64,000 bases of DNA from a virus, in IMG/VR virus record IMGVR_UViG_3300023301_000006, positions 8,424-72,423 of that record. One strand, 5' to 3'. The notes beneath the pieces are model-generated. The model saw only the letters and a program-made list of their open reading frames with translations, was not told the origin of the DNA and did no database searches. Positions 7,197-63,832 of the stretch are shown here, in pieces; position 1 is the stretch's first letter; the number at the start of each line of letters is the position of its first letter. The translations under genes were made by a program, and so were the position numbers.

Positions 7197-10100
7197 TTAA
7201 CTATGTTTCTCACTTCTCATTTCTAATTTTCCATCGTCTGTTATTTTTTCAATTAAGTAAACTAAACTTTGCTTTGTCCTGGAATAATCTTTCCCCCTAA
7301 AAGTGGTTTCGCTCGACCTATATCCAGTAATCATAATTTTGTTGCCCCTACTAAAAAAACTACTATCTATAATAGAGCTATTCTTTTTGACTTGTCTATC
7401 GTAGTACGCAAAATCAGAACCTTTAAACTTTACAGTAACGACTCCACTCCTAGTTAATATTTGAGTCATATGTTTATTCTTATTTCTGCTAAGGCAAGTT
7501 CCAATTATCGTTGATAAGTGAAATACTGGGTACTTGTCTTTCCAATAAAACTTCACAGGTTTTATTTTTAAGTCTTTAAATTTATCCACGAATGGATAAT
7601 ATTCATAGTCTATATAGTCTAATTCATTGTCTGTGGCATAATAGGATATAGAATCCATTTCCCATTTACCTATTGTTCCTTCAGTATAGTGGGACGCTTC
7701 TTCCACTATTATGATTTTATTGTACTCTTTTAAAAGTTCTTTTTCATTCTCTTTAATAAATTTTCTTAACTTATCTGCATCTTTCTCATAAGTAGACTCG
7801 AAAACTGATGACTCTACTAAATATTTGTCTTTCTTGTAAACAACTTTTAACTCTGGGTGTTCTACATTTAAAAATTCAATCATCATTTCTTGTAATGGAA
7901 AATATTTTTTGTCATCTACCTTTATTTCTTCGTTTGAACGTAGTATTTTTCTTAAGTACCACATTATTGAGCTATTCTTAACTTTTGTATTACTAAAAAA
8001 TTTAGCATCAAATAGTCCAGCCATATTCCTTAAAGACAAGGAAGTTTTTACCTTTGCTTTTCCAGCAATATAATCCATTAATAATTCTCTTCTGTCTTTT
8101 TCTTCAATGTTCCTGAAGGCATTTGACTTAATCAAGGATATATTTTTCCTCTTTGACGGTTTTATTCTTTTATAAAAGTCTCCATAGCTAGTGTATGGTC
8201 TACTCTCTACTATTTCAGTAACAAGGTCATCACCAACGTAAGACATTCCTTTTAGTCCGAATAATATAACTCCTCCATCAAAGTCTGGGGTAAATACATA
8301 TCCAGATTTATTGATGTCTGGAGGTGCTATTGTTATTCCAACTTGCTCCATATTACTAATTGCCACAGCTACTTTACCATAGTTAGAAGATGTGTTCTTA
8401 TCTCCATCTTGGTCTATTGCACCACTTTCAACTGTTAAACAAGCTGAATTCCAAGCTAAGTCATTATACTCATATGTTAAGTTTAAAATTTGCAAAGCTA
8501 TCATAGAATAAGGTAAGGTATGATTCCGACTAAAACTATCATGTTGTTCCCACATTTTTGTGGGCATGGACTAACTCTTTAAAGTTTAATATCTCTCTAA
8601 TAAGGTATTAAACTTTATCCACTGTTTGGAGAATAGGAATTTCACCTAAACTCTACTTCCCTTGCGGGAATAGTCTCTACACTCGCTTTCGCTAGCACGG
8701 GATTGTCATATCCATAAATGGACTTAGATTTCCCCGTTAGCACTAAATTAATAGTACACCCTATATTTATAGGTTAAGTGGAATGGGCAATTTTATTTAC
8801 CCAAGTTGAGGAACTACACAATGATGCCATACGTAATTTATTATTTCCTCTCTTGCTCCAGTTCTTTCCTTCGCTTTATCGAAGTAATCTTCTTTTAACT
8901 TATCTATTAATTTAGCTTTCTTCTTTGCTATGGCTTTTCTAGCCTTATGTGCCTCTACAACAGTAAAGCCAGATATGGATTCGTCCATTAGGATTTCCAT
9001 AATGTCTTCTTGTGTAGCCGCAATGCCGTAACTTTTATCTAAGTGTTTCTTCATTGTCATTATCTCATCTTCGTTTAAGCCTTGTAGGTGCATTTCTTCA
9101 TACCAAAGACTTATATCCTTTCTAAACTTAATAAACTTATCTAATGGTTGAATACTTCCTCCACTAGATGATAATCTCATTAATGAGTTTGCTGTTGCCA
9201 TCTCCACCAATGAATGAGGTGCTACTTCTCTTATGGCTTTAGAACCCACCATTGTATCAAATTGGAATAGAGAAACAATTTCACCTTTCGCAGCTTTGTC
9301 CCACATTTCTAAGTTGTCATACTCAAGGACAGCAGGAGATAAATACTTATCATAAGTCTCCCTTAGTGTTTCTTGTCTTTCCATCGCACCGTTGGTGATT
9401 AAATGATTCATAGTTATTCTAATTTTATCTAGAATCTTTACAGTTAAGAAGTCAAATTTGACTCCTCCCATATACATCTTTATCCTATGTTTCCACAGGG
9501 ACGGACTATTTCATGTTCTATTTTAAAATAGAACTCTTGCACTTCGACTGGGACAATATCCAGTCTACGCCTCTCGGCTAGTCTCTACATCTTTCTCTTG
9601 CTTCAATAATAGTTTTTATAAAGTTCTGAGGTTTTAAAAGCCCTATAAAGTTGGGAATGCCCCTTTAAATTTAAGTCTCTTAGGACTAAAGTTACTGAGT
9701 CATATACCTCAACTAGATTCCAATTGATATCATATTTGTAAACTTTTTTAGAACTTGTTGCACCGACATCAACTTTACCAATATTAGAACCAACAACTCC
9801 TTTTTTAGATTCACTTATTTTTTATTGTTATTTACACTATTATTAAAACTTAAGACTTGACACGAGATTGCCATATTGCCGAAGCAACTTAGGTTTCCTC
9901 GTTAGCTTAACCCCTTTAATAAGGATTAAACACCCTTTTTGTCGTAAGGTTCACAAAATTTACTATAACTCTCACAAGTTATAGGGACTATATAATTAAT
10001 CCGAATCTGACATGTCAAACTGAGTTGTAGGAACATCACTCGGAGACATCATCAAAGCATTCCTTTTATAATAAGGTTCATTATATATATAGATACCAGA

Positions 10101-11810
10101 GGCATGTATGCTTCTCTTGTCTATAATTCCCTCGAATGCTAATATCGTCTCCTGTAATTTTTTATCTTCATATTCTTCCAACTTAGACAAAAACTCTTGT
10201 TGAACTCCTCTTTCCTTTTCTCTATTGCCGAATATAACGTCTGCCAATGGTCAGTTAGCACCCCTCTCTTCTGGAACCAATCCAGTTAAATATAATGCTT
10301 CTGACTCCTCGATACCTAAACCACGACAAGCAGATGTTATACTACTCCTAGAGCCAATTGTTCCAAAGGTGGCTATGTTTAATACTCTATCTTCTCCAAA
10401 CTCTACATTTAAAGCCTTAAGTATTTGACCTCTCTGTGACTTTTGTGAGTCCAAGTCAATGTCCATAATGTCTGGTCTGTCTTTGTGGAGAAACCTCCAC
10501 CAAGGAATGTCCCATTTTAAAGGGTTTATTTGTATTATGTCTATCAAGTAATTTATTAATAATCCTGTTGCTGAACCCCTTGAAGGTCCTACAAGACTGT
10601 CTCCCTCTTCCCACATTATTTCAACTAATCTCTTTGTTGTCAATAAATAATTAGCCATATTCTTACCAATTCTCTCACTCGTTCCTAGTATATGTTCTAA
10701 TTCTACATCCACTCTTTGTAGTACTTCTTCTGTTGGTTCAATATCTTTTTTACTCTTTATTCCTCTTAACGTATGATAAATTAGAGCCTTATCATATCTG
10801 TCCTGGCTATTTAAGTATCTAGTAATATATTTGTACCCCTTAAACATTTCTTTTGTCTTAGAGTCAAATTCATGGTCCTCAACTGGAACTTTGGTTATAT
10901 CCACTGATTGAGCCAGACTAATATTCTGACATTGCTCTCCTATAATCAATGTATTTCTAAAGCATTCGTCTATTTCTTCTTCTGGAATGTGATTGTGCAT
11001 TATTTCCTTTATTTCTTTTTCTGACATCATATAGGTAAAACCATAAAAGGCATCGACCTCTCTCTCTCCTTCTTGAGATTGTAAAAAAGCTCTGTGAATA
11101 CTTCTATCTTCTTTTGACAGATAATGGGAGTCAGTAGTTATTATACTCTTAATGTCTTTCGAATCCCCTATTGATTTTATCATTCTATTCACCATAGTTT
11201 GTTCTTCTGATGTTGATGGTTGTAATTCAAAAAAGAAGTTGTCTTTCTCAAAAGCATTGATACACCATTCGATAAACTTCTTAATCCTATCTTGAGCTAC
11301 TGATTTTTCTATCTCACCATTATACATCCCCATTAAAGTATTAGGCAGAAAACCACCTAAACAAGCTGTTGTAGCCATTAAGTGACCTCTGTTTGTACTA
11401 ATAATTTCTTCTATTTGGGAATAAGTTATTGGAACTCTTCTCATTCCTCTATCATAGTAAGAATTGGTCCAAGCTTGAGACGATATCTTTTTTAATTGCT
11501 CATAACCGATTTCATCTTTCGCTATTAATATAAAATGATAATACTGTTGATTGTTCCCTAGTGAATCTACTAAATATATTTCGTCTCCAAAAGCCACAGT
11601 AAAGTTTTCATCTATAACTCCTTCTTCTACTAATTTGGTTCTATATTTGTCTGCTTTCACATGTGAGCTTAATACCTCATGGTCTGTTATTGCTAAACCA
11701 CTTAATCCTAGCTCTATTGCCCTATCTATTAAGTCTGTAACTTTATTTGTAGAGTCTGCTAGTCTTAAGTTAGAATAATCTGTATGATTGTGTGAAGAAA
11801 AATAATTCAC
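7197..11810 (-). CDS. dnaE: DNA polymerase III alpha (DnaE-type), 3 exons, one in-frame TGA, 1276 aa
   Basis: PHP motifs HNHTDYS, AITDH; GPSRGSA, DIDLD; exons 11810-9999, 9474-8799, 8539-7197; joins DSD|YMGGVKFDFL and QLG-Y-SFSRNH; TGA at 10251 in ERGAN*PLADV. Confidence 0.9.
8540..8798 (-). mobile_element. group I intron 2 of dnaE (259 nt, no ORF)
   Basis: GGG T|AAA...ATG|AT AGT; core GTAGAGACTA ... AAGAGTTAGTCC. Confidence 0.9.
9475..9998 (-). mobile_element. group I intron 1 of dnaE (524 nt) with a homing-endonuclease remnant
   Basis: GAT|TAA...ATG|TAT boundaries; core GTAGAGACTAG ... GAAATAGTCC. Confidence 0.88.
9564..9821 (-). pseudogene. C-terminal remnant of an intron homing endonuclease (NUMOD3/NUMOD1-like DNA-binding modules)
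   Basis: Frame reads KISESKKG...KKVYKYDINWNLVEVYDSV...YKNYY*SK; no start codon and no catalytic domain. Confidence 0.65.
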
Positions 11811-11890
11811 TTATACCTCCTTTTCTTTTTTTTCTTATCTTATATATACATTATACCATTATTTTATAATTTTTACAATATCTTTTTTTC

Positions 11891-13633
11891 TTAAAAAACG
11901 AAAGAACTACTTGCTTTTATCTCACACTCATCTACGATAATTTGAGGGACAACCTTACCATTTCACTCATTCGTGTTCGGCTTACCTATTAAACTAATTT
12001 CAAGGGAGTTACCATTTGGTATATTTGCAATTATTTCCTCTGCTCTAAACATTATATACTCAACACCATTAAAAATAATCTTTATAATATTAGATTTCTT
12101 TCCGATTAGTTGTAGCTCTGATGCGTCTATTTTAATATTAGATACCATAATCTTAGGCTCTCTCAATCTAGTTCCCCAAAGGTGTTTCATATCATTTAAT
12201 TTAAAGATGTACTCGCTACTTACTTCAGTGGAGTCCATTAAGAAGTCTATGCTAAATACTTTTTCAAAATCATAGTCTTTTAATAGGTTGTTACTTAGCT
12301 CTATTAATGGTTTTATATTTTCTGGTTTTATACAAGTTCCGAAAGCTGCTTGATGACCTTCTGCGTATTCTACTAAACCAGTATTGTTTAAGTACTTCTT
12401 AAATTCATTTAGTTTTGTTCCAGAGGGGCATCTACCACTACCATAAAATAAACCGTCTTCTTCATTCTTTAAAAGTATTAAAGTTGGTCTATTATACTTG
12501 TCTTGTATTTTATTGGCAACTAGTCCAGTCATAGACCGCTCAATTATATTAGTCGCATTTAAGATTATAACTTTATTTCCTAATTGGTCTTTCTCAACTA
12601 ACTGTGTTAATTTTTTCATACCATTAGTTTCTGCCTTCTTTTGTCTTATCTTAATATTACCTGCCATTCTAGCCATTTCCTTTTCAATGAATACTAGTTG
12701 TCCTTTGTTGTTTCTACCAGAACCTATTACCTTACTACCGTCTAGTATAAATGCTTTAAACATCATAATCTTCTCTTGCATATTTCCAAGTCTAATGACA
12801 GCATTTATCAATGGAGCTATATAGAACATTATGTCTATTGGATAAACATTGTCACCCAAAGAGTAGCTCTTTTTCTTTATTAATGCCTTGATGAATAAGT
12901 TTCCTTCAATATCATCATTCATTAATTTTACGCCTCTTCTGACTATTACAATATTATCTCTCAACCTCATGTCCATATTATCTGAGGCTATCCCTAATGC
13001 TGCTAAATCTACTAACTGTTCTGAGAAATTAATACTATTTACATCATCTAGTGCTTGACAAAATTTAAACGCAACTCCAGCTCCACTTAAGAATTTATTG
13101 TTGTAGTCTGGAGATAATTGGTTGTTAACCACCATTGCATATTCAGATTCTTTACTTGCTTCATGGTGGTCTAGTACAATAATACTTGTACCAGCGTCTG
13201 AGAGTTCTTTATGCTTTTTATATTGACTACTACCCGCATCTGGAATTATTACTAAGTCATATTCTTTCATCTTTTCAAGCTCTTCTCCATCTGGTAGTCC
13301 TACTTCTTTGTTTTCGTGTATAAAAAAGTCCATATCAGTAAGATTATAAACCTTATATAAATACTTTCATATGATAGATGCTGAGGTATAACCATCAACG
13401 TCACTATCTACTACTATCATTACTTTTTTGTCACCTTGGCTAAGTTGTTCATCTAAGAACACAGATGTCTCTTTAAGATTCTTTAACCTATACTTATCTT
13501 CTTCGTAATCTACGCTTGTGTCTTCTCTACTTAAAAATATGTTAATATCATCTGGACTTACTCCTCTTTTTAAAAGTAAATCCTCTTGAATAGAACTAGA
13601 AAGTCCTACTAAATTGTCTAATGAAAATTGCAT
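11891..13633 (-). CDS. recJ: RecJ-like DHH ssDNA exonuclease, two in-frame TGA, 580 aa
   Basis: DSDVDG, PDAG, LDHH, GSGR, GHQAAFG; TGA 13367 (SASII*KYLY) and 11963 (NTNE*NGKVVPQII) join the fragments in one frame. Confidence 0.88.
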
Positions 13634-13657
13634 TTAATCACCCTTCTTTTTTTTAAT

Positions 13658-13867
13658 TTAACATTGGAAAAATTCCAATGGATATATTCAGTCAATACTT
13701 TCTTCTGGAATGTTGAATTCTAACCCTTGTGCTTCGTAAACATTTTGCCCAGTAAATAGGTAGTCTTCCGCAACACCTACTCACACAAAATGGAAGCTTT
13801 TACCATCCATTTCTACCATAGATTTAGATAGCCCTTTAGTGATTTTTGGTCTATAAATTCCCTTCAT
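13658..13867 (-). CDS. hypothetical protein, 69 aa, open only if TGA is read through
   Basis: GGAG RBS and ATG; TGA at 13781 and 13688; fills the primase-recJ gap. Confidence 0.65.
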
Positions 13868-13878
13868 ATTATCAGCTC

Positions 13879-14988
13879 CTACATTCTAATTTTTTTATGA
13901 TATATTTTTTCGAAGACTTCTTTGCCCTGGTCTATTGGAGATTGCTTTCTCCTTAATAATTCATGCTCATCAACCATTATAAAGACAGTAAAGTAAGGCT
14001 TTAAAAACTCTGCTAGTTTAAGCATGTTCTCAAAACATTCAACTCCTTCATCTGAGTAAAAATCTGTGTAATCTTTGTCTAAAGCCAAAACAACTCTATC
14101 TACATCTAAATGTAATAGCAATTTCACTTGTTGACTACTTATCTTTTTTCCAGCCATGGCTAAAGTAAAGTTGTTATTCGGATAAATCGTTTCTGCTTTT
14201 AGAACACTTTTTTCTGATTCAAAAATTACTACTTGTCTTAAATTACGTATTACTTTTTTATTCCTGTATATACCATAAAAGTTCATGGAGGTAGGATGTG
14301 AAAAAATCTTCTTTTGTATCGTCATAGGCATGTATTTATATCCATCATTGATTTCACTTTTTCTAAGTGCTCTACCTCTTATTCCTATCAGATTATTATT
14401 TATATCGTAGTGGGGAATAACTACCCTGTTATCTGTTATTGAATATTTTATATTAAACTTCTTCATTGAGTCTATAGATATTCCCTCTTGGATTCATCCT
14501 TTATAGAAAGCATCTTTATAAAAATTTATTGTGTAACTGGGTATCTTTTTAATTACCTGTATCTCTTCTTTACCATCTTCCATTGCTCTTTTGTATTCAT
14601 CTATAAAATCTCATGTAAACTGTGTGTCTCTTTCTCTCTCTGTTTCTGTTTCTATACCAAAACCTAAGTTTATAGTTGTATGGTTTACAACGTATTCTAT
14701 AGATTCTTCTAAACTTATCTTGTATCCTCTATACCACATTGTATCCTGTACTAACCCATATATATCATACGCATCTTGACCTCCTGTATAACATTTAAAA
14801 ATCCCAGTTTCGAGATAATAATATAATTTATAACTCATCTTATCGTCTGGGTGGTGGTGGCACACTGTTTGGAAGACAAGGCTATCTTTCCTTCTTTGAG
14901 GATAACTACTACCTAAGGACATTAAAACATCAATGATGTCATCCTCAGTTAGCTTGTCTCTTATGTCTTCTTTCATTTCAAAGAACAT
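13879..14988 (-). CDS. DNA primase (DnaG-like; Zn finger and TOPRIM), two in-frame TGA
   Basis: TVCHH...FKCYT, GIRGR, IFESEKS, LALDKD; TGA at 14611 and 14494 (KG*IQEGIS) keep one frame. Confidence 0.88.
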
Positions 14989-15003
14989 TTAAGCACCTCC
15001 CAC

Positions 15004-18000
15004 TTAAAAGGTTTCGCTAGGGACATCCTCTGTACCCTGTTGTCTTTTTTTCTGTTCATTCTCAATAGTTATTACTGTTGACTTCATTGGTATTAATTCA
15101 TATTTCGAATTAGTGACAAATAAATCAGTTATTCTACACGTTCCCAAATCTGCTATCGACCATAATTTTACGCCCTTGTACTTAGAACGTCTGTTCTTGT
15201 ATACATGGAACACTATATTAGGTACTTCTAAGAAATTCTCATCTAAGATATGGGATATAGCTTTAATATCTTTTTCTGTTGGTTCTAAAGCAATTATTCC
15301 AACATCAATTTTCGTTTATACCGTCACTTTCGTGATATTTAATACGGACTAGACTATATCTGCACCTCCCTAGATGGGAGGGACTGGCTCTTCGTAATAA
15401 GGAATTACACCTTAAAACTACTCCCTTTATTGGCTGGGATAGTCGTTACACCTTTAACTAAACTTGGCACGGGATTGTCATAGGATTTCTCCCTTAGAGT
15501 TTCCCCGTTAGCACTAAATTAATAGCACACCTTACATTTGTAAGTTCACCAGTACCTAACTACGCCATTGCTGACATAGACGACTCTAGTTTACTTTTTA
15601 TTCGCATAGATTTATAATATTTTCTATGCTACTTACTTCTATTTTTTTTCAATTTCAACACACCTTTCTAAGATGCGAATAAAAAGTTATTCAAATCTGC
15701 CATTGATTTTGCCGTGTTACTCTTGTGTTTCCACAAGCACTGACTATCTCTTACTCTCCTACCAAGGAGAGAATTTCTGTTTCGGTTCTCAGTAGTTTAA
15801 TTACTTAAAACTACGTTACTTATCAATAGTAACCCTACTTTCCATCTAACTGGAAATAGTCGATACAGCGACTTACTTAATACATTATTAAGTAATATGC
15901 CACGAGATTACCATAGCTCTCACCTTAGGCTTCCTCGTTAGCTTTAATTTGTTAAATTAAAACCCCACTTGATATGCGGATAAGAAATTTAGTGGCGTAA
16001 AAACACCACGTAATAAATTTTGTGTAGCTTGGTCTACTTTATCCCAGTCACCATTAACTTGCGTAGCAGTATATATAAAGACTCCTAACTCATTGGCTAT
16101 CTTCTTTAATCTACTTACAAACATCAACAGAACATTATCTTCTCTTAGTCTGACTCCTCTACTGGCAGAAGCAATTTCGGCAAGTATCTTTAAAGTAGTG
16201 TGAACATAATCGAAAAATACATAATGTACATCATGCTTTAATTTATGTCTCGTTACCATATTGTCTACTTGTTGAATATTATGATTAGACAAGTGTTCTA
16301 TCCAAATTGGAGCTCCCTTTATGATGTGTGCAGCTTCTATTACCCTTTCCTTTTCTCCTTCGTCATATTCTCCATCTAATATATGTGCCTCATTTACATT
16401 TGAGACAAAGGCAAGGAATAATGTTTGTATCTCTTGTATTTCTAGCTCTGTAGTAATAAATAGTGATGGCATACTTATACCATTAGATACTCAATCATTT
16501 TTCTTTGAGTCCCAAACTTTATCTACTGCTAGGTTTATAGCATCTCCCGCACTGAATCTAGTATTGTGAGTTACAATATAATCATTCATTAGGAACAAGT
16601 GTTCATCGTTGTCAACTGTAAAACAAGTCATCTCTGTAGAGAAACCCATTTTTTCTATATTTACTATTGGATTATAATCTTTATGCTCTTTTCTTTTTAA
16701 CGTTAAAACATACTTATTCGCAATATTTAATTTTCTAGAAAACCTAAATACTTTTAGCTTATCTTCGTGTGGCATTTGTATATTAATTTTATAACAAACT
16801 CCTGTAGAGTATTTATCTCTTATGTCCTCTATGATTGTTGGTATATAACCAAGACTTCTAGCTAAACTCACAACGTCATCTTTAAGTTTTACACTAATAG
16901 TGTGATAAGCAACTCTTCCTTTTTTATCTATTGAGCCATCTGTATCAAGAAGCCCCTGTAGTAGGCACATTCTTTGGTCTATAGACCCCAATAAATAGTC
17001 GTCAGGAATAAATTTATCTTCACTTTTGGCATTCCATAAGTCTTTGTAACCTATTGATTCTTCAACAGAAATTCTGTTGTTAGTGTTTTTTTCTTTCCTA
17101 AAGAACCAAGAATAGTTTTCACTTTTTTCTTTCTCATAGTGCCACCCCTCTAATTTGGACATTGTAGATATTATTTCTTCATCGGCAGCAGAGAACGTTA
17201 AATCTCTTCTTCCACTTACATACCTGAAACTTCCATCTCCCAATAGTGCTCCAAAAGTGTAGGGTTTAAGTCCATATTCTTTTTCATTATACTCAACTGC
17301 ACCATTTATCGGAACTTTAAAAGTATACCCACTTGTTCCTTTAAATCCACCAAGAGATTTAGCTTCTTCGAGTATCTGCTTAGTAGTTTTTGTCTTATGG
17401 GCACATCTTCTATCTGTAAAATATTCCCATAAGTGTTCGTCACATGTTTCGGCAACTCTACCATCAGCGAAAGTAACTTTGTTTATTTCTTTTTCACTCT
17501 CTTGCGGATGGACGCCCACTACTTTTGTTGGCTTTCCATTTCTTCCAAAAATGTAAGAACCAATTTTTACCTCATCAACCCTTTTAAATCCTTCTGGAGT
17601 TGGTATCTTAGTATAGTTTGGGATAGCCTTCCCCACACCAGTAGGAGCACTTCTCATATAGAGTTTTTTAAGTCTTGCACCTCTTACGATACCGTTTATA
17701 TAACTGCCATTTAAAGGTAGTCCAATTGCAGGTTTTTCTAATAAGTCATCTATTAAACCAACAATATTTTGACCAGCTCTTTGTCCATAACTATCTGCAC
17801 TCATTTCAAAGCTTTGTCTAACCTCTACTATCTTCATGTCTACTAGATTAATTATTTCATTTATAGACATCTTGTCTAAACCATTTTGCATTTTTTCTTT
17901 CTTGTCTGAATTAAGTTCGTCTGGGTCATATATAAATCTTATGTCTACCCCAGACTTCAAATAAGCCCTCAATAAAGAGAACTTTTTTACACGATTATAG

Positions 18001-18332
18001 TAATACACAAAATTGTCTCCATCAGCACTATTCTTTGCAAATTCAAGAGCTTCTAGTCCTCTATTACTCCGAAATATTTCATACTGCTCTGGATACTTAT
18101 TTAAATAACTGTCTATCGCAATAGAGTCCAACCTATCCACTCCAGAATTAACTAAATTATTTATCGCAGAGAAAACAATTCTATGATGTCTTGCTACAAA
18201 ATCTGACACCTCTAATTTAAATCTATCATGTTTTAATAATGTTGTTGGGTTGTTCAAAAGAGCACCAAATAACATTAATACTGCTTTGTTGTCGTACAAT
18301 TCTTCTATATTTATATCTTTAAAACTACTCAA
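15004..18332 (-). CDS. dnaB: replicative DnaB-like helicase with intein, in-frame TGA and two introns
   Basis: Walker A SAPTGVGK|T, FITTELE, FFDYVH, ATQVN, KNRRS; exons 18332-16005, 15712-15695, 15312-15004; joins LLRG|AKSMAD|KIDVG; TGA at 16491. Confidence 0.88.
15313..15694 (-). mobile_element. group I intron 2 of the helicase (382 nt)
   Basis: GAT|T...G|AAA; core GTAACGACTATC ... AGATATAGTCT; enlarged 5' region. Confidence 0.85.
15713..16004 (-). mobile_element. group I intron 1 of the helicase (292 nt)
   Basis: CGT GGT|G...G|GCA; P1 GTGGT/GCCAC; core ATCGACTAT ... AAGAGATAGTCA. Confidence 0.88.
16563..17627 (-). mobile_element. intein with LAGLIDADG endonuclease (355 aa, Ala1, class 3 signature)
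   Basis: Starts AIPNYTKIPTP after GVGK, ends IVTHN before T; DEHLW, MTCFTV; ALLGDG and GLLDTDG. Confidence 0.9.
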
Positions 18333-18342
18333 AGTTCACCTC

Positions 18343-18837
18343 CTATAATTCTTTCATATCTATCTTTCTTTTCTCGAAAACACTTTTTTTATCTGGTCTC
18401 GCTATAACTACCTTATGTTCTTCCTTATTCACTTTTTGGTTACCAGACTCCTTGCTCTCTTTAACCTTCCTATAGTAAATAGAAGCGTCCTCATAAACGT
18501 AGGGTACTATTCCTATTCCGCCATGAGCTTTCTTAGTAGAATTCCCTTCTAGTATAAACCAGTACTCTAGGGTTTTTCATATGCCAAAGTAAGTGTAACC
18601 TTTTTTTTGATAGTCTTTTATCTGTTTAAGTATTCTAGGACTTGGATATTTTATATCAAATATTTTTTTTATTATTTCCACCATATTTTCATGGTTTACC
18701 ACAGAATTCGCTTCATCAACTTCTGCTTGTTCTTCTACACATTCTTTGTGATAATATCTTCTTCCCTTCTTCACAAAATCCACTTCTTCTTTATAGAAGC
18801 GTTCCTCACAAACTGGACATTTTACTTTATTTGCCAT
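18343..18837 (-). CDS. Zn-ribbon protein upstream of the helicase (possible loader), one in-frame TGA
   Basis: CPVC...HKEC; TGA at 18577 continues KTLEYWF...GGIGIVPYVYEDA to a TAG overlapping the helicase RBS. Confidence 0.75.
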
Positions 18838-18894
18838 TTAACCACCTCTTCATTAATAAAAAAAATAGGAGTATTATACTCCTATTCAATTTTA

Positions 18895-19926
18895 CTACTT
18901 CAATTCGTTCTCTATTCTATTATTTATTAGGAATAAAATGTCTACTTGAGATTTACTCATCTCAGAAACCTTTCTTCCTTTTCCTAGTTCTTCTTCTACT
19001 AGGGTTATTATTTTGTCTGACAACTCTCTTTTGCCCTGAGTAACTTCATCAGGGTCTTCTAAATTACCTAGTAATGCAATTCCCTCTTCCATAAACGCTC
19101 CAGTTAAATCATCAAATCTATTTTTTTCTTCCTGGAAAGTTCCGTGGTCTTCTGCAGTTTCTTCTCTTAAGTTCTTTACTTCTTCAGAAACTTTAATGCC
19201 TTTTTCTTCCGCCTCAGACAAGACTGCATCTTTAACTGCCTCGGCTAATCCATCATGAGAAAACTCTACGAAAGGTTTGATATTTTTAAATCTACTTCCA
19301 GCTTCAAATCTCTCTGTTCCTCTTAAGAATAATTTTCTGCTTTCAACCCCCTCTGAATTTGTCACCATTCTAGCATAAGCGTAAATATCAACAGCTCTTG
19401 TTACAACCTTGTGAGCTCTCTTGTCTAATGTTGTTGTGATTTTATTGTACTCATGACCACTTTCATCAGTGAAGACTTTATCTTTATCATGAGAGATGAT
19501 TACTAGACCATATCCCATTTTTGGAATTTCTCTAATGAATCTATCAAATTCTTCTTCATACATTCCATAACCTTGTCCGTATCCAATATCTCCTATTTTA
19601 CCAACTTGTTCTCTGTTACAGATATAATCTTTTACGTACTCTACAGCTATGTCAGCAGTGTCGACTATGACAGTCTCATACTGGTCCTTGACTTCATCTT
19701 TCGACAACTGTCTTAATACTTCTTTAGCTTCAGTTCATTTATTAATTGATACAGCCTTTACTCCGAATAAAGCACTGTACCCTTTTTCAAAAGCTAATAG
19801 TAGAGGTTTTGGAAATTGACTTGCATTGTATGTTTTGCCAACTTTTTTCTCACCATAAATCATTACTGAATACCCCTTTAGATTGGTACTAGGGATATGT
19901 TCTTCCACATTCATTAAATCTAACAT
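18895..19926 (-). CDS. AAA ATPase, Sak4-like recombinase, one in-frame TGA
   Basis: YGEKKVGKT, AFEKG, IVDTAD, IISH; TGA at 19735 in SINK*TEAKEVLRQL. Confidence 0.8.
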
Positions 19927-19973
19927 CTAATCACTCCTTTTATTTTTTCTAATAACTTACGACTGCATTCTGA

Positions 19974-20861
19974 CTAAAAGTTTGATGGGTCAAAACTACC
20001 GCCAGAACCACTAGTCTCTTTAGCTTTAGGTTTAGCAGGCTTAGATGTTTTGCTTTTTGACTTTAAATTGATATTTCTCATCTTAAGTGCTTCTTTAACT
20101 TCTTCAATGGCATATTCTTTACCATCTGAGTAAGGAGTTGTTCCTCTAGTGACAAGCAATCTTTTCTTCGATACTGTTCTTTCTTGAACAATGTCTTCTC
20201 CAAAAGCCATCTCTTCTGTCTTGGTGATAGTAACTTCTTTATTTTTCATTTGACCGAATAATTTAACAGTGTCTCCTTTTTTATATTGAGACTCAACGTA
20301 ACTCACTCCTTGTGGACTTTCTACTGCAAATTCTAACTCCACAACGCTTCCTGCGTACCCAATAAAATAACCTTTTATAATCTTAGCTCCTGTTTCCATT
20401 TGTGTTTCCTCATCCATTTCATCAAATATAGAGTCAATTAATACTTCAACTTCGAATGTTCCAGTAGGTTCGAATTCTCCTTTTATTCTATTTGGGAATA
20501 CACCTCTTACATTGTAGTTCTCAAGTATACTTCCATCATCTGTCATAAAACTATTTGGAGATAACTCTGCACTAGTAAATTCTACATTATCTCCTTTTTG
20601 CCCTTCTCCTGCGTCTGCTGAAGACTTATAAGTTTCCATGATAGATTTGAAACTCTTGAATAATTTACTTTCCCCACCAGCTTTTTTAAACTTTCCTGCA
20701 TACATGTTTACTTTGACAATATTATCATCACTTGTTTTGATTGACAAGTCTCCTGCGATATAGGGGAAACCATCTCTCTTACTAATATTTTGCTCGAGAG
20801 TATTCTCCATTAATTCTCCCTTAATAACTACTGAACTGTAACCCTGTCTTAAATCTGACAT
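19974..20861 (-). CDS. putative single-stranded DNA-binding protein
   Basis: Beta-rich tandem OB-like sequence, flexible tail ending FDPSNF, first gene of the replication operon. Confidence 0.6.
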   Translation of the reverse strand: MSDLRQGYSSVVIKGELMENTLEQNISKRDGFPYIAGDLSIKTSDDNIVKVNMYAGKFKKAGGESKLFKSFKSIMETYKSSADAGEGQKGDNVEFTSAELSPNSFMTDDGSILENYNVRGVFPNRIKGEFEPTGTFEVEVLIDSIFDEMDEETQMETGAKIIKGYFIGYAGSVVELEFAVESPQGVSYVESQYKKGDTVKLFGQMKNKEVTITKTEEMAFGEDIVQERTVSKKRLLVTRGTTPYSDGKEYAIEEVKEALKMRNINLKSKSKTSKPAKPKAKETSGSGGSFDPSNF

Positions 20862-20948
20862 TACATCACTCCTTTATTTTTTTTTATACTTTCATTTTCT
20901 ACATCTATAATTATATCATATAAATTTAATTTTGTCAAATATTATTTT

Positions 20949-22016
20949 CTAAAAACATTCGTAACATATATCGTCTTCAGTCATATAACTCTTTCAATTA
21001 TATTCCCCACAAGACTTGCACTTAATCATAGTGTCACAGTCGCTACACATAATCATATCTTCACTATCAATATGTTTTTCGCCACATATTGGACAAGGGA
21101 TTTTCATAATCCCAATATCTACAGATAATTCCATACTTCCCTTCTTATGATATATAGCACTCATATCTTTTTCTTCAGAGGAGGATAATAATATATCATT
21201 GTAATCAAAAGTCATACCGACATCATTTATTGATTGTCTTATGATTCCCATCTTTTTCACTAACATCCATTTATTCTGTAAATTTTTATATTTAGATAAC
21301 AGCTCCTCAAGATTTTCTCTAACAGCAGTGCTTAAAATATCTGATTCATAAGGATAGTTCTTAGAAAACAATGCTTGAGACCTTTCTATATTAATATGTA
21401 CTAATTGCCTCCATTGTTTGTCGTCTATCTCAACCCCATTGATGACCGTTGTATTTGTCTTTAAATAAGCCACAAAAGTACTACTATCTAATAGATAAGC
21501 ATAAGTCCCACCCCTGTATATACCATCGGTGAGATTTAGACAACTACTCCAATTTTTATTATTTAAACTTATTGTGAGCATATCTAAAATATCTACACTA
21601 AAAACAAGTTGTCCAACTATCTTCGACTTCTGTATAATCATTGAATAGTCAGTTTGTAAATCGTACGGATTATAATTTACAGCTTTTTTGAGTATTTTGG
21701 ATACTTTCATTCCTTTATTAAATTTTTCCTCACTATACTCTATTTTGCTAGTAATTCTATTATTCAAAAATTCATCTTTGGTTATTAGCTCCAATAGTAC
21801 ATTTATGCCCTCATACTTCTTAGAAAAAACATTAAGAATCTTTCTATACTCTCTGTCACTTACTGTAGTTTCAATATCTATTTCTATTTTCTTTTGACCC
21901 CCAAACATATTGATTATTTCCTTTTTATTTTCATTGTGTAAGGAAATAAGAGGATTGGGGTCAATTATCTCGACCCCGTAACCATTCTTATAAAAGTCTT
22001 TTATGTCTTTTAACAT
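20949..22016 (-). CDS. W-x-S-C family protein with C-terminal Zn fingers, one in-frame TGA
   Basis: NWSSCL, DKQWRQL, KNYP; TGA 20994 readthrough adds ICYECF, completing a CxxC pair. Confidence 0.7.
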
Positions 22017-22029
22017 GTATCACCTCCGT

Positions 22030-22956
22030 TTAAGACGGAACCTCTAATAGTCCATGACATCCGTCACATAAATCCATACCATATACACTCTTCGAAAAAG
22101 TGTCTTTATGAAATTTCCCACACGCGTAACAGACTATATCAAATCCACCTTCTTCACTTTCTTGTTGATACATTCCTTGATAAAAATCAATAGTTTTATT
22201 TTTTCTCTTGTAGTAAACATATGTTTTTTCAATAAAAACTGGTTTCTCTTTAGGCAATGTATTTATCATCTTGGAAACTTTTTCGATAGTAGCAATCATT
22301 TCTTTAATGTCTACGTATTCATATTCTCTATGTTCATTGTAGTATCCTATTGACAAGTTTACGCCACATATGTCCCAGATAGGCATTAGTGTATCAATAT
22401 CTGTAAAGCTCCCACTAGTCTTTTTAAATCCGTACCCTTCTACTAAGGAATGAAAATCTGGGCTATCGCAACAATAAAACACTGCGTCTTCACTTCCTCG
22501 TCTATCCAGTTGAATTAAGTATTTTATATCAACTGGAACAATTTCTTCTTTTGAAGCCTTGCGAGCTCCAACTCCACCAATTTCTTCATCTTCAGTAAAC
22601 AGTATATGTGGGCGGTGTCCCGCTAAAAGTAGAGCTAGAATACCGAATATACCACATCTATCGTCTCCACCCAATCCATCTGGCGAAGTTATTAACTCTT
22701 GTTCCTTGTCGAATATAAAAGTTGTTGGTGGAGTTTTGAATACTGTATCCATATGTGCAAGTAACATCACATCTTCTTCACCCACAACCTTAATATATCC
22801 GTCTTTGCTTCTAATCATGTCTTTGCTGTAGAACAGTGGTAAAATATCTTTAACCAGTGTGTTCTTTAATTCTTTTTGAGTAAGACCCAAAATTAGTTTA
22901 AAGGTTTCCACATCTCTAAGAGTCTCACCTATGGCTATGTTTTTTTGTTTTATCAT
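22030..22956 (-). CDS. Zn-dependent peptidase (M20/M28-like)
   Basis: AHMDTV, LGGDDRCG, DEEIG, LDRRG, YYNEH. Confidence 0.8.
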   Translation of the reverse strand: MIKQKNIAIGETLRDVETFKLILGLTQKELKNTLVKDILPLFYSKDMIRSKDGYIKVVGEEDVMLLAHMDTVFKTPPTTFIFDKEQELITSPDGLGGDDRCGIFGILALLLAGHRPHILFTEDEEIGGVGARKASKEEIVPVDIKYLIQLDRRGSEDAVFYCCDSPDFHSLVEGYGFKKTSGSFTDIDTLMPIWDICGVNLSIGYYNEHREYEYVDIKEMIATIEKVSKMINTLPKEKPVFIEKTYVYYKRKNKTIDFYQGMYQQESEEGGFDIVCYACGKFHKDTFSKSVYGMDLCDGCHGLLEVPS

Positions 22957-22974
22957 TATATTCTCTCCTCCTAG

Positions 22975-27688: not shown

Positions 27689-27819
27689 TATCAACCTTGA
27701 CAAAAGCACAAGAGTGTGATATAATACAAACATGGTCTTTTAAAATTTAGTAATAACCACAACTAACCCAGTGAATAAAAAGTTTAACTAGCTTTTCTGG
27801 GACATATAGAAGATAGAGA

Positions 27820-28295: not shown

Positions 28296-28322
28296 TTACT
28301 AAGTTTTAAAAGACTTGTTAAT

Positions 28323-28473: not shown

Positions 28474-28527
28474 TATACCTTTTCCCCTTTGTTGTGTGGG
28501 AAATTAAATATAGCACAACTACATTAT

Positions 28528-28602: not shown

Positions 28603-28607
28603 AATAA

Positions 28608-28693: not shown

Positions 28694-28697
28694 ATAT

Positions 28698-30290: not shown

Positions 30291-30383
30291 ATGTGAATAT
30301 GTGAAAAATGTTCAAAAACTTATAATTATCGTCCAAAAGATGATATTTGTGAGAAATGTACTGCAGATTGTTATTTTCAATAA
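30291..30383 (+). CDS. 30-aa Zn-ribbon peptide beginning ATG-TGA
   Basis: AGGAGG RBS; with TGA=Trp reads MWICEKCSKTYNYRPKDDICEKCTADCYFQ. Confidence 0.6.
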
Positions 30384-30401
30384 AAAGGAGGAGGTACTAC
30401 A

Positions 30402-30722
30402 ATGATGACTGAAGAAGAATTATTTGAAGACTTTGACACTTGAGAAGATAGGTTCTTAGAAGCTTACGAAAATGGTGTGAAATTTGATGAAAGTCTTATG
30501 GGAAATTTAGCTTGGGAAGCAGAAGTACAAAATGAACATGACAAGCTTCGTTGGCAAATAGTAATGGAATCTATATTCCAAGTCAAGAACAGATACTTTT
30601 GTATTGACTGGCAAAAAGGTTTAACAGAGAGCCAAATAGATTCATTCTCAGAACAACCATATGAAGTTGAGAAGATAGAAAGAGAAGTTACTAAGATGGT
30701 TGTTACTTGGGTAAAGAAATAA
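30402..30722 (+). CDS. hypothetical protein with in-frame TGA, paralog of 2269..2601
   Basis: GGAGGAGG RBS then ATG 30402; TGA 30441 in frame with ORF 30477..30722. Confidence 0.72.
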
Positions 30723-30812: not shown

Positions 30813-30895
30813 GGGTGTGTAATCTTAAACTGAGCTGAGCTTAGGTGAGTCTCCAACACTCATGATAAAACGTTTGATTCGTTACATGCCTGCCA
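30813..30895 (+). tRNA. tRNA-Trp(CCA), atypical D/T arms
   Basis: TGAGT-CTCCAAC-ACTCA, G73, CCA. Confidence 0.7.
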
Positions 30896-30900
30896 ATTAT

Positions 30901-30998
30901 GAGAGTGTATAGCAGTGAAGTACTGTGGCGGTCTTCAAAACCGTACGGCTGAGGTCCAAACTTGGTTTATGAGGGAGCGTTACCTTCCATTCTCGCCA
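30901..30998 (+). tRNA. UGA-decoding tRNA (anticodon TCA), probably Trp
   Basis: Acceptor GAGAGTG/CATTCTC-G-CCA; anticodon arm GCGGT-CTTCAAA-ACCGT; long variable arm; T-arm GAGGG-AGCGTTA-CCTTC. Confidence 0.82.
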
Positions 30999-36707: not shown

Positions 36708-38030
36708 TTAGAGGAATCAGTTTTGTTTATGTGTTTTCTCTTCTACACAATACTCGCAGACATTATCTACCATCTCTTCTGAAAGGACAAATTCAGCACA
36801 TTCTTCACAGCAAGAGTATTCTCTTGAGCACCTATTACAAACCCAAGTATCGTATCCAGTGAAGTGTGCACTATCTACATGCTCTGTAACACCACAATCT
36901 TCACAATATATGAAATTCTCATTGAAACAAATTTCACATACGTTGCCCTCTTCTGTCGCATATATGTTTTCACTGTGATGGAAGTCTCCACAATAAGCAC
37001 ACTCTTCTCCTTCCCTATAACAATTACACAAATCAACACTACCGCAACTTGGACAAGAGTAATCTTCAATTTGTCTTAAACCTGCGATGTATTCGTTGTC
37101 TGCCCTAAACTTTACATTAAGGACAGTAGAATCAACATAAGCATGGGTAAAATAATAATTATCAAGTGTCTGTTTAGTTGTTATCTCCCCATCTGCTAGC
37201 TCTTGAATCTTTTCTTTGATTTTTTCATTAAAGAATTTATTCTCAAAAGGGTAATTCTTTTTTAAGTCTACTGAAACTACAGGGTCGTTGTCATTAAATG
37301 ACTGAGTGGAAGTGACAAAAATTAAAGAACGCCATTTCTTATTATCAACTGCTCCAAGATAAGGCTTTGATGATTTAGTGTAGGCTACTGCTATCGAAGG
37401 ACTGTTTAGATACTCTATTAATCCTAATTTATAACTGTGTTCTGAGTCTGTAGACATACAACTTCTCCAATTATTTGTATTACTACTCATGGATATGATA
37501 TCTTCCAATTTTGTACTAATGTATATTGTCTCTTTCCCTTGTAAGTTTTGTATGAGCATAGAATACTCTTTCAAAAAAAACGTTGCAACTTCATCGTTTA
37601 AATAGGTTTTAAAAATCTTACTAATCACCTTTGTAATTTTCATACCTTTTTGGAATTTTAAATCCCTATACTCTTTTTTTTCTTCAAGTCTATTATTCTT
37701 TATATACTTGAAAATACCCACTGATGAATTAATTCCAGAATCTTTAACAAACTGGTACATGTGCTCTACGACTAGATAAGATAGTTTAATCTTATTACTA
37801 AAATTCAACACCTTGGAGAAAGTACTTAATAGCTTATCAGAGGTATCTTCCCTACTTTCAGAGTGTTCTACCTCGAATGAAATCTTTTCTTTTCCGCCCA
37901 ACAGGAACTTACGTATTGTCTTCTTCTTTTCGTCCCATTCCTCGTACATTTCTTCAATAAAAAGTCTTGCAAAGTCAACGTTCTCATAAATCTTACCTAA
38001 TTGTACTGACATGAAATCAATTTTATCCAT
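36708..38030 (-). CDS. W-x-S-C family protein with multiple C-terminal CxxC repeats
   Basis: NWRSCM, KKWRSL, KNYP; TGA at 36717 followed by FL-TAA. Confidence 0.72.
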
Positions 38031-43696: not shown

Positions 43697-43975
43697 TTAT
43701 ACCTCCCCGTATATTGGTTTTAATAGTGAAATGGCATCTATTTCAATTATCTTATAATTTTGACGATAGTGACTAATAAAGCTATCTGCTTCTCAGGAAG
43801 AACTGGTCTCCCAAATATATCCTTCCCCCATCAAAAATAATGTACTATGCTCAATAGTGCGAAGTGACTTTACCAATGGACCATCGAAACTCCAGCGGAG
43901 TTTTTTGTCAATTGCATATGACTCAAACAACTTAAGTATTTCTTTAGTTCTTATTGATACCACATAGTAATTCAC
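43697..43975 (-). CDS. family C-like YxEV-tail protein with in-frame TGA
   Basis: GTG after AAGGAGGT; TGA 43793 readthrough gives ...IDAISLLKPIYGEV, like 47965 (INAIDLLSPIYKEV). Confidence 0.72.
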
Positions 43976-43976
43976 T

Positions 43977-44264
43977 TTATACCTCCTTATATAAAAAGAT
44001 TGCTTCCCATATGTCCTCAAAGTTTAGTGTGATATCATCTTTTATGTCCAAATTTTCAATTTTATCATATGACACACGAAGTTTATCTAAACGGACTTTA
44101 TAATATAAAGGATACATATATTCAGGAGGAAGCCACTCTGGCAAAAAATCCCCATCTTGCCAACGGTAACCTAACTTATTCAATGCTTTACTTACATCAA
44201 TTACATCTGGTTGATTTTCTAATATAACGCAAAATTCATCTGGTAATCCTTTTCTCAATATCAT
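43977..44264 (-). CDS. family B YxEV-tail protein
   Basis: LGYRWQDGD; ends FLYKEV. Confidence 0.75.
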   Translation of the reverse strand: MILRKGLPDEFCVILENQPDVIDVSKALNKLGYRWQDGDFLPEWLPPEYMYPLYYKVRLDKLRVSYDKIENLDIKDDITLNFEDIWEAIFLYKEV

Positions 44265-48795: not shown

Positions 48796-49071
48796 CTACA
48801 CCTCCTTGTAAATGTAAATAAAATCTTTTATATATTTAATGCCTAACTCTTTCACTTCATTTCCTCTTTTTTTCTCATATCCAAGAGAATCATCATAGTT
48901 CTCCACAAGCCAGATAGAGTTATTTTCTATTATTACTCCTTGACAAGGGTAATTAATTAGTGCGTTTTCGTTTCCTGCGTGTTCTCAGACGTAATCCTTT
49001 ACTTTTGAAAAAATATAGAACATGTGTTTCTCAGAAAGATTAGTTAATCTAATTAAATCTATGGAACTCAT
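48796..49071 (-). CDS. YxEV-tail protein with in-frame TGA (absent from the ORF track)
   Basis: ATG after AGGAGGTG; TGA 48985; ends IYIYKEV; fills the gap exactly. Confidence 0.72.
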
Positions 49072-54267: not shown

Positions 54268-54987
54268 ATGAACAACTTAGATGTAGTCAAGCACGGTAGC
54301 TTGATAGACGCAACGTCAGAGAAACCCTTTTCACAATTTGAACAACAGTTTATAGCAGAGGCACTGTCAAAGATTTCTATGGAGGACAATGAACTGAAGG
54401 ATACGGAGATAGACGTAGATGAACTTTACGAAGAGTGTTTTGGAGGTGTTCCGTCAGGGGTCACTAAGAAAAAGGCTTATGGAGCCCTAGAGGGATTGAC
54501 AGAGAAAAAGATAACGATACATGTAAATGGACTAAAAAGGAAAGAGAGAGCATCATTCTCGTGGCTCAGCTTGTTCGTATATGACAAAGTTACAGGCAAG
54601 GCTACAGCCCATATTAACAAAGATGCAGCAATATATTTGTTGAATCTTGACGATAATTTCACAAAGATAAAAAGGGAGATATACATGCTAATGAGTAATA
54701 CTTATGGTACAAGACTCTTAGAACTCATGAGTAAGGTATATGGTGCTGTGAATGAGAGACTCTTTACAATAGAAGAATTGAGAAAACTGCTTCATGTGGG
54801 GGACAGGTATCCGAGTAACTACGACCTTAAGAGATATGTAATAGAGCCAGCCATCGAAGGAGTGAATGAACTAGCAGACTTTGTATTAAGTTATGAACAG
54901 ATTAAAACAAAAAGGAGAATATCACACTTCAAATTTACAAAGCACAAGAAGAAAGATTTAGATGAGCACAAGCCTATAGAGTTTTAA
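54268..54987 (+). CDS. repB: plasmid replication initiator (Rep_3/RepB family)
   Basis: FSWL, YLLNL..NFT, SNTYGTRLLELM, FTIEELRKLL, DLKRYVIEPAI..VN; adjacent iterons. Confidence 0.88.
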   Translation: MNNLDVVKHGSLIDATSEKPFSQFEQQFIAEALSKISMEDNELKDTEIDVDELYEECFGGVPSGVTKKKAYGALEGLTEKKITIHVNGLKRKERASFSWLSLFVYDKVTGKATAHINKDAAIYLLNLDDNFTKIKREIYMLMSNTYGTRLLELMSKVYGAVNERLFTIEELRKLLHVGDRYPSNYDLKRYVIEPAIEGVNELADFVLSYEQIKTKRRISHFKFTKHKKKDLDEHKPIEF

Positions 54988-61335: not shown

Positions 61336-61410
61336 TGGCGTACCTGGTAGGACTCGAACCTACATACCCTTGATTAACAGTCAAGTGCTAAGCCTTTTAG
61401 CTACAGATAC
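61336..61410 (-). tRNA. tRNA-Asn(GTT), second copy
   Basis: CTTGA-CTGTTAA-TCAAG, GCCA end. Confidence 0.88.
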
Positions 61411-61416: not shown

Positions 61417-61494
61417 TGGTTGCTGTGGTTGGACTCGAACCAACATATGACAGTCTATAAAACCGTTTAGGAAACCATTATCCCAACACTCGCA
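61417..61494 (-). tRNA. tRNA-Ile(TAT)-like with an irregular acceptor stem
   Basis: ACGGT-TTTATAG-ACTGT, T-arm GTTGG-TTCGAGT-CCAAC, ACCA end. Confidence 0.65.
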
Positions 61495-63021: not shown

Positions 63022-63079
63022 CTCCTTTTCTATACTCTAATTATACATCAATATTATTAATTTGTCAAGGAATTTCTTC

Positions 63080-63832
63080 CTAAAGTGACAATCAAGCCAC
63101 TTTAAAGAAGTTTTTCACTTTTCGCCAAGGTGCTCCACAAAATCCAGTTTTATATGTTTTTGTGTTATATACTAATTTTCTATCTAAGTTGTGATAAATC
63201 ATACTTTCATCAATTGCGTCTGCTAGTCCAGTATGTTCCTCAATATAATAGTCATCGCCAAACATAAATCTATAAGTAACTTCTGCATTTGTTTTGTAAT
63301 TTCCTTTTTCTGTTACATGTCCATTTTCTAAAACAAATTCTTGAAAACTTTCTTGTAGTAAAACTGTCTCACATACTAGACCCCAAATATCTAAAAATTC
63401 ATATTGACCTTTTACAATTAATTTAAATGACTCTTTGTAGTCAACTTTTTTGTTGTCTTTATATTTTAAAGTTCTTTTTCCTTTTGCTAAAATTCTCATA
63501 TAGCTATGAACCAAAGCTCTAATATCAAATAATAAGTTATAAGCTAATACTTTTGAAACATTATTTATTTCAATATCATTTCTTAAAATTTTAACCATTT
63601 CTAAAAATGGAATTGTAATATGCTCTAAAGCTAAGTAATGTTTTTTTACTTTATCCGCAAAATATGCACTATCCATTAATTCTTTGTTGTTAAAAATTTC
63701 TTCTACTAAAAATCTTCTTTTCTTTAATGTTTTGCCTTGTGGTGAAGTAATTACCCAACCGATATCGTAAATTAGTGGTTTGTAAACTGAACCTGCTGTT
63801 TCTACATCAAATGTTAAGTTATTCTTTTTCAT
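63080..63832 (-). CDS. DEDDh 3'-5' exonuclease
   Basis: FDVETA, AYNLLFD, EEHTGLADAIDE; TGA at 63092 followed by LSL-TAG. Confidence 0.82.

Follow-up and report, generated by a model that had tools for sequence, protein, structure and literature searches.

The stretch of DNA considered here, a window of 64 kb that spans bases 8424–72423 of a single contig of 72,423 bp (IMG/VR virus record IMGVR_UViG_3300023301_000006), is a partial phage genome that carries an SPbeta-like replication module and is of salt-lake metagenome origin. This phage quite probably uses TGA as a minority codon for tryptophan (Trp, or W), with the decoder most likely being its own transfer RNA (tRNA) with a UCA anticodon, tRNA(UCA), which is encoded at 30901..30998 and belongs to a class of phage tRNAs called two-headed below. 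The TGAs are in frame, they are conserved, they lie at Trp positions and they swap with TGG. That UGA is read as Trp had been proposed in the original prediction, made from the nucleotide sequence alone, and the proposal was borne out by the W found at the corresponding sites of homologues and by the TGA/TGG swaps seen in close relatives. Positions given here are those of the window, with negative numbers lying before its first base.

All of the TGAs listed in that prediction are in frame, within open reading frames (ORFs) that are open under translation table 4, and the peptides quoted around them agree with the table-4 translations. Most lie on the minus strand in the replication module, where Pfam and PHROGs identified a Sak4-like ATPase (18895..19926; AAA_24, phrog_124) with a TGA at 19735–19737 (codon 64), a YorH-like protein (18343..18837; phrog_4680) with one at 18577–18579 (codon 87), and a DnaB-like helicase containing a LAGLIDADG intein (15957..18332; Pfam DnaB, DnaB_C and LAGLIDADG_3) with one at 16491–16493 (codon 614). 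The YorJ-like primase (13879..14988; phrog_47) has two, at 14611–14613 (codon 126) and 14494–14496 (codon 165), as does the RecJ-like exonuclease (11891..13633; DHH, RecJ_OB, phrog_2484) at 13367–13369 (codon 89) and 11963–11965 (codon 557), and also a 69-aa ORF between them (13658..13867) at 13781–13783 and 13688–13690. The 604-aa N-terminal piece of DnaE, the alpha subunit of DNA polymerase III (9996..11810; Pfam PHP and DNA_pol3_alpha, phrog_405), has a single TGA at 10251–10253 (codon 520), and a 355-aa protein (20949..22016) has one at 20994–20996 (codon 341), between two CxxC motifs. Eight of the ten ORFs in 9996–22016 thus hold at least one TGA. Outside the module, readthrough in two small minus-strand genes, 43697..44020 (TGA 43793–43795, ending IYGEV) and 48796..49071 (TGA 48985–48987, ending YIYKEV), restores the Y-x-E-V tail of their family, as had been claimed.

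To learn which residue stands opposite these codons, the genes were translated with X at each TGA and set against eight phage loci with the same module. The primase site 165 is W in all six aligned phages and in 118 of 120 homologues of a wider sample, the other two having F; site 126 of the same protein varies among the eight phage loci and is W in 79 of the 120. Sak4 site 64 is W in 5/5 homologues, DnaB site 614 is W in five phages and Y in one, and RecJ site 557 is W in three, Y in four and F in one. For DnaE site 520, all six phage homologues have W, which is also the plurality among the 129 of 150 representatives that aligned there (W 60, Y 22, R 18, others 29). Exceptions to this alignment with W are YorH-like site 87 and RecJ site 89.

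The whole stretch is present in one hypersaline-lake metagenome run, and relatives are present in salt-lake or lake-water runs of other studies. Two close relatives, L001 with 91–99% nucleotide identity across the aligned pieces and L016 with about 89%, cover between them 11 of the window's TGAs, which appear eight times as TGA, three times as TGG and never as any other codon. L001 has TGA at 10251, 13688 and 14611 and TGG at 11963, 13781 and 14494, whereas all 22 TGG codons in the part aligned with it remain TGG; L016 has TGA at 16491, 18577, 19735 and 20994. Contigs of three more runs (X2, X3 and X5) share the base change from TGA to TGG at 11963, a site among the 40 listed of 933 differing places. 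A fourth swap was found in a 250-aa protein (63080..63832, minus strand; phrog_20187), whose TGA at 63092–63094, three codons before TAG, corresponds to W in a protein that is 97% identical and shares its WLSL end. In tblastn, single segments of 92–93% identity span the TGAs, including a 92% high-scoring segment pair across 20994 in L016, so that selection acts on what follows the TGAs. The idea of split genes that restart after the TGA was rejected.

The phage-encoded TCA tRNA that had been placed at 30901–30998 is real and its ends were exact, but it is non-canonical and no ordinary tRNA-Trp. ARAGORN run with -ps called a tRNA-SeC(tca) of 98 nt at exactly these ends on the plus strand. Its acceptor/T helix is 7/5, its D stem is long and its anticodon loop reads CUUCAAA; position 73 is G and the CCA end is encoded. 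In the extra arm, 7 bp of stem close the loop G-U-CCA-A-A, which copies the anticodon loop of tRNA-Trp. When the same relaxed search was applied to 60 dinucleotide shuffles of the contig, it gave one tRNA call in all and none of the SeC or tca type. Default ARAGORN found 16 tRNAs in the window, none with TCA, the Rfam tRNA model gave no match to 30901–30998, and the Rfam tRNA-Sec model, whose gathering score is 47, gave 30901–30994 only 24 bits. Five metagenomic genes, each called tRNA-SeC by ARAGORN, have exactly the same 20-nt anticodon arm.

The tRNA(UCA) is the last member of an array on the plus strand that comprises 16 ordinary tRNAs (28399–30807) and ends in two odd ones; to the ordinary tRNAs Rfam adds a tRNA-Gly(UCC) at 30193–30264. 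The other odd one is a candidate aberrant tRNA(CCA) of 83 nt at 30813..30895, 5 nt upstream of tRNA(UCA). Inspection by eye assigns to this candidate an acceptor stem of 8 bp, a T stem of 4 bp, G73 and a terminal CCA. It scored 28.1 bits (E 2.5e-5) with the covariance model R1 described below and its fold has a z-score of -1.8, with no ARAGORN call even under relaxed settings and no Rfam tRNA match. Upstream of the array are three perfect sigma-70-type consensus promoters, TTGACA-17-TATAAT, at 27093, 27170 and 27697 on the plus strand, and right after the last of these a full-length ROOL RNA (27743–28303, plus strand) that scored 293 bits against a gathering score of 99.1. A tmRNA-like (transfer-messenger RNA) element of 69 nt at 28323–28391 (plus strand) scored 44.8 bits, just below its gathering score of 47, with a z-score of -2.4.

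The window's tRNA is one of a widespread class of UCA tRNAs in phages, and this class is associated with TGA-recoded contigs. A pattern scan of IMG/VR for a UCA arm followed within 6–22 nt by TCCAAA gave 61 matches, compared with about 7 expected by chance, the latter being a rough estimate and not a computed one. As a control, the 15-mer of the UCA arm was scanned for without the TCCAA condition, and among the 80 loci listed, of at least 118, ARAGORN called 37 tRNA(tca), made up of 22 long ones with the TCCAA arm, nine of ordinary length and six long, selC-like ones without the arm. The pooled class has 41 unique sequences. With the window included, 35 of 42 close the xUCCAAx loop with at least 4 consecutive base pairs, as opposed to 1.5% of shuffled controls, and they do so with 33 distinct stems. 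For 15 members RNAalifold returned a cloverleaf of five helices, and 15 of its 21 predicted pairs show compensatory changes. The covariance model R1 was built from 32 IMG/VR members with the window's tRNA left out, yet it placed tRNA(UCA) at the top of the window with 58.9 bits (E 1.6e-13), the next tRNA reaching 40.6. It also gave a weak match at 61417–61494 on the minus strand (16 bits, E 0.04), which adjoins a tRNA-Asn at 61336–61410. In loci of at least 6 kb that carry such a tRNA, the median coding density is 0.70 with table 11 and 0.85 with table 4, the median gain being 0.10; the gain exceeded 0.05 in 30 of 37 of these loci, compared with 16 of the 51 others (Mann-Whitney p 3e-9). With this class the window's copy shares the anticodon loop CUUCAAA, the xUCCAAx hairpin loop and G73. 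It departs from most members in having G1-C72, where 33 of 42 begin with A, and from the class in its long Sec-like D stem and in a T loop that lacks the usual UUCGA.

How the codon is used along the contig was judged from a codon-usage-scored, non-overlapping set of ORFs over the whole contig, 113 after removal of those inside the RNA region. These contain 35 TGA and 193 TGG codons, so that TGG dominates and recoding is sparse, as had been noted at the outset. Internal TGAs number 24, one of which, at 8644, is in a 42-aa ORF between DnaE pieces 2 and 3 that is probably noncoding; eight more fall within the first 20 codons, so that translation could begin after them, and three in the last five. 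TGA is also rare as a terminator: at most these 3 of 113 ORFs could end in it, and one of the three is the codon matched by W at 63092. The TGA share of Trp codons is 0.154, compared with an A-ending share of 0.706 for Lys, Glu and Gln (binomial p 3e-67), and this underuse argues against a host that reads TGA freely. Coding density, which the original prediction had offered as a check, rose from 0.785 to 0.838 with TGA as sense, and with a shorter ORF cut-off from 0.843 to 0.884; a control with TAG as sense gave 0.818. With recoding this sparse, coding density is a weak discriminator here. The base after internal TGA tended to be A (13/24, compared with 64/193 after TGG; p 0.07) and seldom T (2/24 compared with 48/193; p 0.08), both weak trends.

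The distribution of the codon is strongly uneven, although the borders of the blocks described here were chosen after the data were seen. From the contig start to -236, a block with a five-domain lysin, an S8 protease, a permease and RuvC, internal TGA and TGG stand at 10:24, and from 6629 to 22016, DnaE to the 355-aa protein, at 12:29. For the nucleotide-metabolism genes from -152 to 6625, which share the strand of DnaE and lie just downstream of it, the ratio is 0:27, and the 76 mostly small ORFs of 22030–63832, including PnuC and a Rep_3 initiator, have 2:113. The two rich blocks (22:53) thus differ from the remainder (2:140) with a Fisher p of 1e-9, the borders being post hoc. The original prediction had suggested that one or two TGAs per gene make the replisome conditional on the suppressor tRNA. 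The enrichment in replication genes held up, but replisome-specific gating is unsupported, because the lysis block is as rich in TGA, DnaE has one TGA in about 1286 codons and the nucleotide-metabolism genes have none. A broader gating of lytic modules versus the rest is possible, and so is mosaic ancestry or passive tolerance in late-expressed genes.

As an account of the distribution only, mosaic ancestry, or passive tolerance of the codon in genes whose expression follows accumulation of the tRNA, with no selected replisome switch, is in our judgement an even bet. It would fit the similar ratios of the lysis and replication blocks on either side of TGA-free nucleotide-metabolism genes, the single-base changes between TGG and TGA by which relatives gain and lose the codon, and a replication module that is common to many Bacillota phages. 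It fares less well with the very strong contrast to 22030–63832, where the Rep_3 initiator is free of TGA and so agrees with the idea of standard-coded quiescent-state genes put forward by Borges et al. (bioRxiv 10.1101/2021.08.26.457843). This Rep_3-type plasmid initiator (Rep3_N and Rep3_C) is at 54268–54987 on the plus strand, opposite to its neighbours.

The host would, in the reading preferred here, use the standard code with release factor 2 (RF2), and TGA would be tolerated mainly in modules that are expressed once tRNA(UCA) is present. The possibility that the host itself reads UGA as Trp, using table 4 and lacking RF2, with the UCA tRNA as a mere supplement, appears improbable. It draws on an AT-rich window (32.6% G+C). 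Such a host is hard to reconcile with TGA at 15% of Trp codons when A-ending synonymous codons stand at 71%, or with 2 internal TGAs against 113 TGGs over the 76 ORFs of 22030–63832; the PnuC-type nicotinamide mononucleotide transporter in this region (42719–43387, minus strand) has 14 TGG and 0 TGA, a strict avoidance. The phage moreover carries its own UCA tRNA, of a class found on TGA-recoded contigs of the kind that Borges et al. assigned to standard-code hosts.

The preferred reading, decoding by tRNA(UCA), would require that this tRNA be charged with Trp, possibly through recognition of the CCA loop of the extra arm by tryptophanyl-tRNA synthetase (TrpRS). The main identity elements for the bacterial enzyme are listed in PMC9976931 as the anticodon, G73 and the pair 1-72. 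A UCA anticodon should therefore weaken charging, and a second arm that presents CCA is a plausible compensation. An extended version, which we offer tentatively and hold to be rather doubtful, is that the variable arm would act as a decoy anticodon, presenting its CCA loop to the host TrpRS while UGA is read by the true anticodon, that a temperate Rep_3 phage would keep its replisome and lysis modules untranslatable until the promoter-rich ROOL-tRNA array is turned on, and that the same architecture could explain many of the "missing" table-4 suppressors.

Charging by seryl-tRNA synthetase (SerRS), perhaps with further conversion, such that TGA is read as Ser, Sec (selenocysteine), Cys or ambiguously, is a formal alternative because of the long arm, and one to which we give very little credence. 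G73 is also in its favour, together with the anticodon arm identical to those of five genes that ARAGORN calls tRNA-SeC and the standing of tRNA-Sec as the best Rfam family. The codon evidence speaks against Ser, as Trp is conserved where TGA stands (118 of 120 at primase 165) and TGA alternates only with TGG. The extra-arm loop copies that of the Trp anticodon, and the control scan separated six selC-like long tRNAs without the TCCAA arm from 22 other long ones with it. In comparison with bacterial tRNA-Sec (selC, Rfam RF01852), tRNA(UCA) has the UCA anticodon, the long extra arm and D stem, G73 and the identical 20-nt anticodon arm in common, but differs in its 7/5 and not 8/5 (13-bp) helices, its 24 bits against 47, and TGAs at Trp rather than Cys or Sec positions. 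True selenocysteine use was rejected on the Trp-conserved sites, the swaps only with TGG and the 7/5 helix.

It could also be supposed that there is no dedicated decoder and that the TGAs are leaky stops, read at a low level by a tRNA-Trp(CCA), either the host's or that of 30813–30895, so as to keep the proteins scarce. UGA is read as Trp at a low level in Bacillus subtilis, the candidate tRNA(CCA) adjoins tRNA(UCA), and TGA is rare, usually with one or two per gene. The 883-aa lysin, with four TGAs, and the S8 protease, with three, make this highly unlikely, since low readthrough at each codon would multiply to almost nothing; the phage also has a UCA tRNA, one whose class is linked to recoded contigs. 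Sequencing or assembly errors and pseudogenes, in favour of which nothing was found, can be dismissed almost entirely, as 8 of the 11 TGAs recur in two independently assembled relatives, conservation extends to either side of each TGA, and one contig of a source-like run contains the whole stretch, with a word depth of 354 and 0 other letters.

Several observations weigh against the reading as a whole. RecJ site 89 is mostly not W in the eight phages (Y 6, I 1, A 1), YorH-like site 87 is Q, E, R, R and R in homologues, and fewer than half of the distant representatives have W at DnaE site 520. The gain in coding density is small, 0.052 compared with 0.033 for the TAG control. The T loop and D loop of tRNA(UCA) are non-canonical and default detectors miss it; its fold is no better than that of shuffled sequences (z -0.4 to -0.5), and SerRS might be drawn instead to its long extra arm and G73 (PMC9976931). 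The invariance of the loop in the two-headed class is partly imposed by the search patterns, a caveat that does not extend to the covariation of the stems, the control scan or the association with recoding. An exact 20-mer of the tRNA region had 0 matches in viral contigs, as did a 25-mer of the tRNA-Met; the paired-loop pattern had 0 in viral contigs and one chance match without a tRNA in genome contigs; blastn of the region against phages gave nothing relevant; and the neighbouring protein had 0 relatives in viral contigs. No relative spanning the tRNA region thus emerged from these searches. That the host would use the standard code is suggested indirectly, by TGA underuse, and no RNA run was among the sequencing runs listed as holding the stretch.

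TGA-to-Trp recoding with a suppressor tRNA(UCA) is established in gut phages such as Agate and Jade, as described by Borges et al. As in those phages, TGA stands in frame at Trp positions, the phage encodes a UCA tRNA and TGA hardly ever serves as a terminator, a scarcity that the preprint also reports for close relatives. Recoded codons are likewise gathered in some modules, including lysis, and a quiescent-state gene, here Rep_3, is TGA-free. The differences are a salt lake instead of the gut, the SPbeta-like replication module, and recoding that is sparse, at 15% of Trp codons. In Agate the replication genes use the standard code, whereas here they are as TGA-rich as the lysis genes; across recoded phages the same preprint describes replication genes as standard-coded in some clades and as "variably" or "mostly" in the alternative code in others.

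Among known tRNAs, the allo-tRNAs and the selC* tRNA-Cys(UCA) are irregular and Sec-like, some are on phages, and some are UCA opal suppressors (Mukai et al., PMC5389517, main text). Their helices are 8/4 or 9/3, unlike the 7/5 of tRNA(UCA), and their identity is Ser, His or Cys; the main text of that paper mentions neither Trp identity (the words "Trp" and "tryptophan" occur 0 times) nor a CCA-loop arm. The candidate tRNA(CCA), as judged by eye only, may have the 8/4 shape of allo-tRNAs. A 2025 preprint (PMC12636597) covers 213 phage suppressor tRNAs, with 31 phage UGA suppressors tested, and its main text mentions no extra hairpin. Literature searches found no description of the CCA-loop arm, and no published name for the class is known to us, although the supplements of Mukai 2016, Borges et al. 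and PMC12636597 may show such tRNAs. Bacillus phage Basilisk is reported in PMC6145125 to have a tRNA-SeC beside a tRNA-Trp. In that phage (L019, 11016–11090) there is a 75-nt tRNA-like element with a UCA loop, 26 bits with the Rfam tRNA model and no extra arm, about 450 nt downstream of tRNA-Asn and tRNA-Trp, and this is probably the "tRNA-SeC" of that paper.

The replication module follows the order of yorF–yorL in SPbeta, that is, a YorF-like protein, Sak4 (yorG), YorH, DnaB (yorI), primase (yorJ), RecJ (yorK) and DnaE (yorL), with the RecJ proteins 36% identical. SPbeta, unlike the window, has no TGA at the aligned sites, and the window differs further in having DnaE in three pieces and an intein in DnaB. 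Pieces 2 (8797–9477) and 3 (7197–8567) of DnaE, also on the minus strand, have no in-frame TGA and eight TGG, and cover positions 590–782 and 790–1089 of the phrog_405 profile. The gene as a whole occupies 7197–11810, and window bases 9473–9999 are missing from L001, where the flanks are contiguous; L001 has inserts of its own in recJ (at window position 12355), in dnaE (10476–10489) and at 8593/8594. Rfam over 8400–16100 gave no match, and no intron family at the DnaE inserts. The DnaB intein (16557–17628, minus strand) is missing in L016, and contigs of X3 and X5 skip it. In the space that separates the primase from the helicase gene, relaxed ARAGORN called a 98-nt tRNA-Leu(aag) at 15206–15303 (plus strand) without Rfam support, and 15298–15361 is a 64-nt match, at 92%, to two Staphylococcus phages.

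The lysin, located before the window (L010, 1585–4236), combines an S8 subtilase, an amidase_2, two PG_binding_1 domains and NAGPA, and in a search of the PDB the alignments did not reach its TGA sites. The S8 protease directly after it is 269 aa long. A ribonucleotide reductase gene on the minus strand (2810–6034) is in pieces at 4793–6034, 4279–4554 and 2810–3697, interrupted by two Rfam group I introns (4603–4868 and 4115–4386), which together with the tRNA array and the ROOL RNA are carried by the contig. The 355-aa protein is one of three paralogues, of 355, 386 and 440 aa, at 20949–24135 and 36708–38030 (minus strand), with NNW-x-SC and K-x-WR-x-L motifs, Cys-rich C-termini and no Pfam match. 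In the one of 440 aa (36708..38030) the TGA at 36717–36719 lies two codons before TAA and may be either stop or sense. Within 30291..30722 on the plus strand, TGA is codon 2 (30294) of a 30-aa CxxC...CxxC mini-ORF and codon 14 (30441) of a 106-aa ORF that phrog_6343 matches at residues 35–104 only; the start is ambiguous in both. Neither a phage TrpRS nor release factor 1 (RF1) was seen on the partial contig. As the ORFs annotated on its 72 kb include no gene for a terminase, portal or capsid protein and the contig runs to its ends, the genome is probably incomplete.

With TGA-to-Trp recoding in phages already published, what is new here is the sparse pattern of replication plus lysis in an SPbeta-like phage of a salt lake, together with a Sec-shaped, two-headed tRNA. 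Stop-codon recoding in phages has been known mainly from gut and rumen viromes, and it is here extended to a salt-lake phage and an SPbeta-like module. A sparse stage of recoding was caught, in which close relatives differ by single TGG/TGA changes. Gene callers that use table 11 will fragment the polymerase, helicase, primase and lysin of such a phage, and tRNA(UCA) shows why standard tRNA finders miss suppressors of this sort, which Borges et al. detected in only 35% of table-4 phage genomes. Finally, the extra arm suggests a testable route by which a UCA tRNA may keep its Trp identity.

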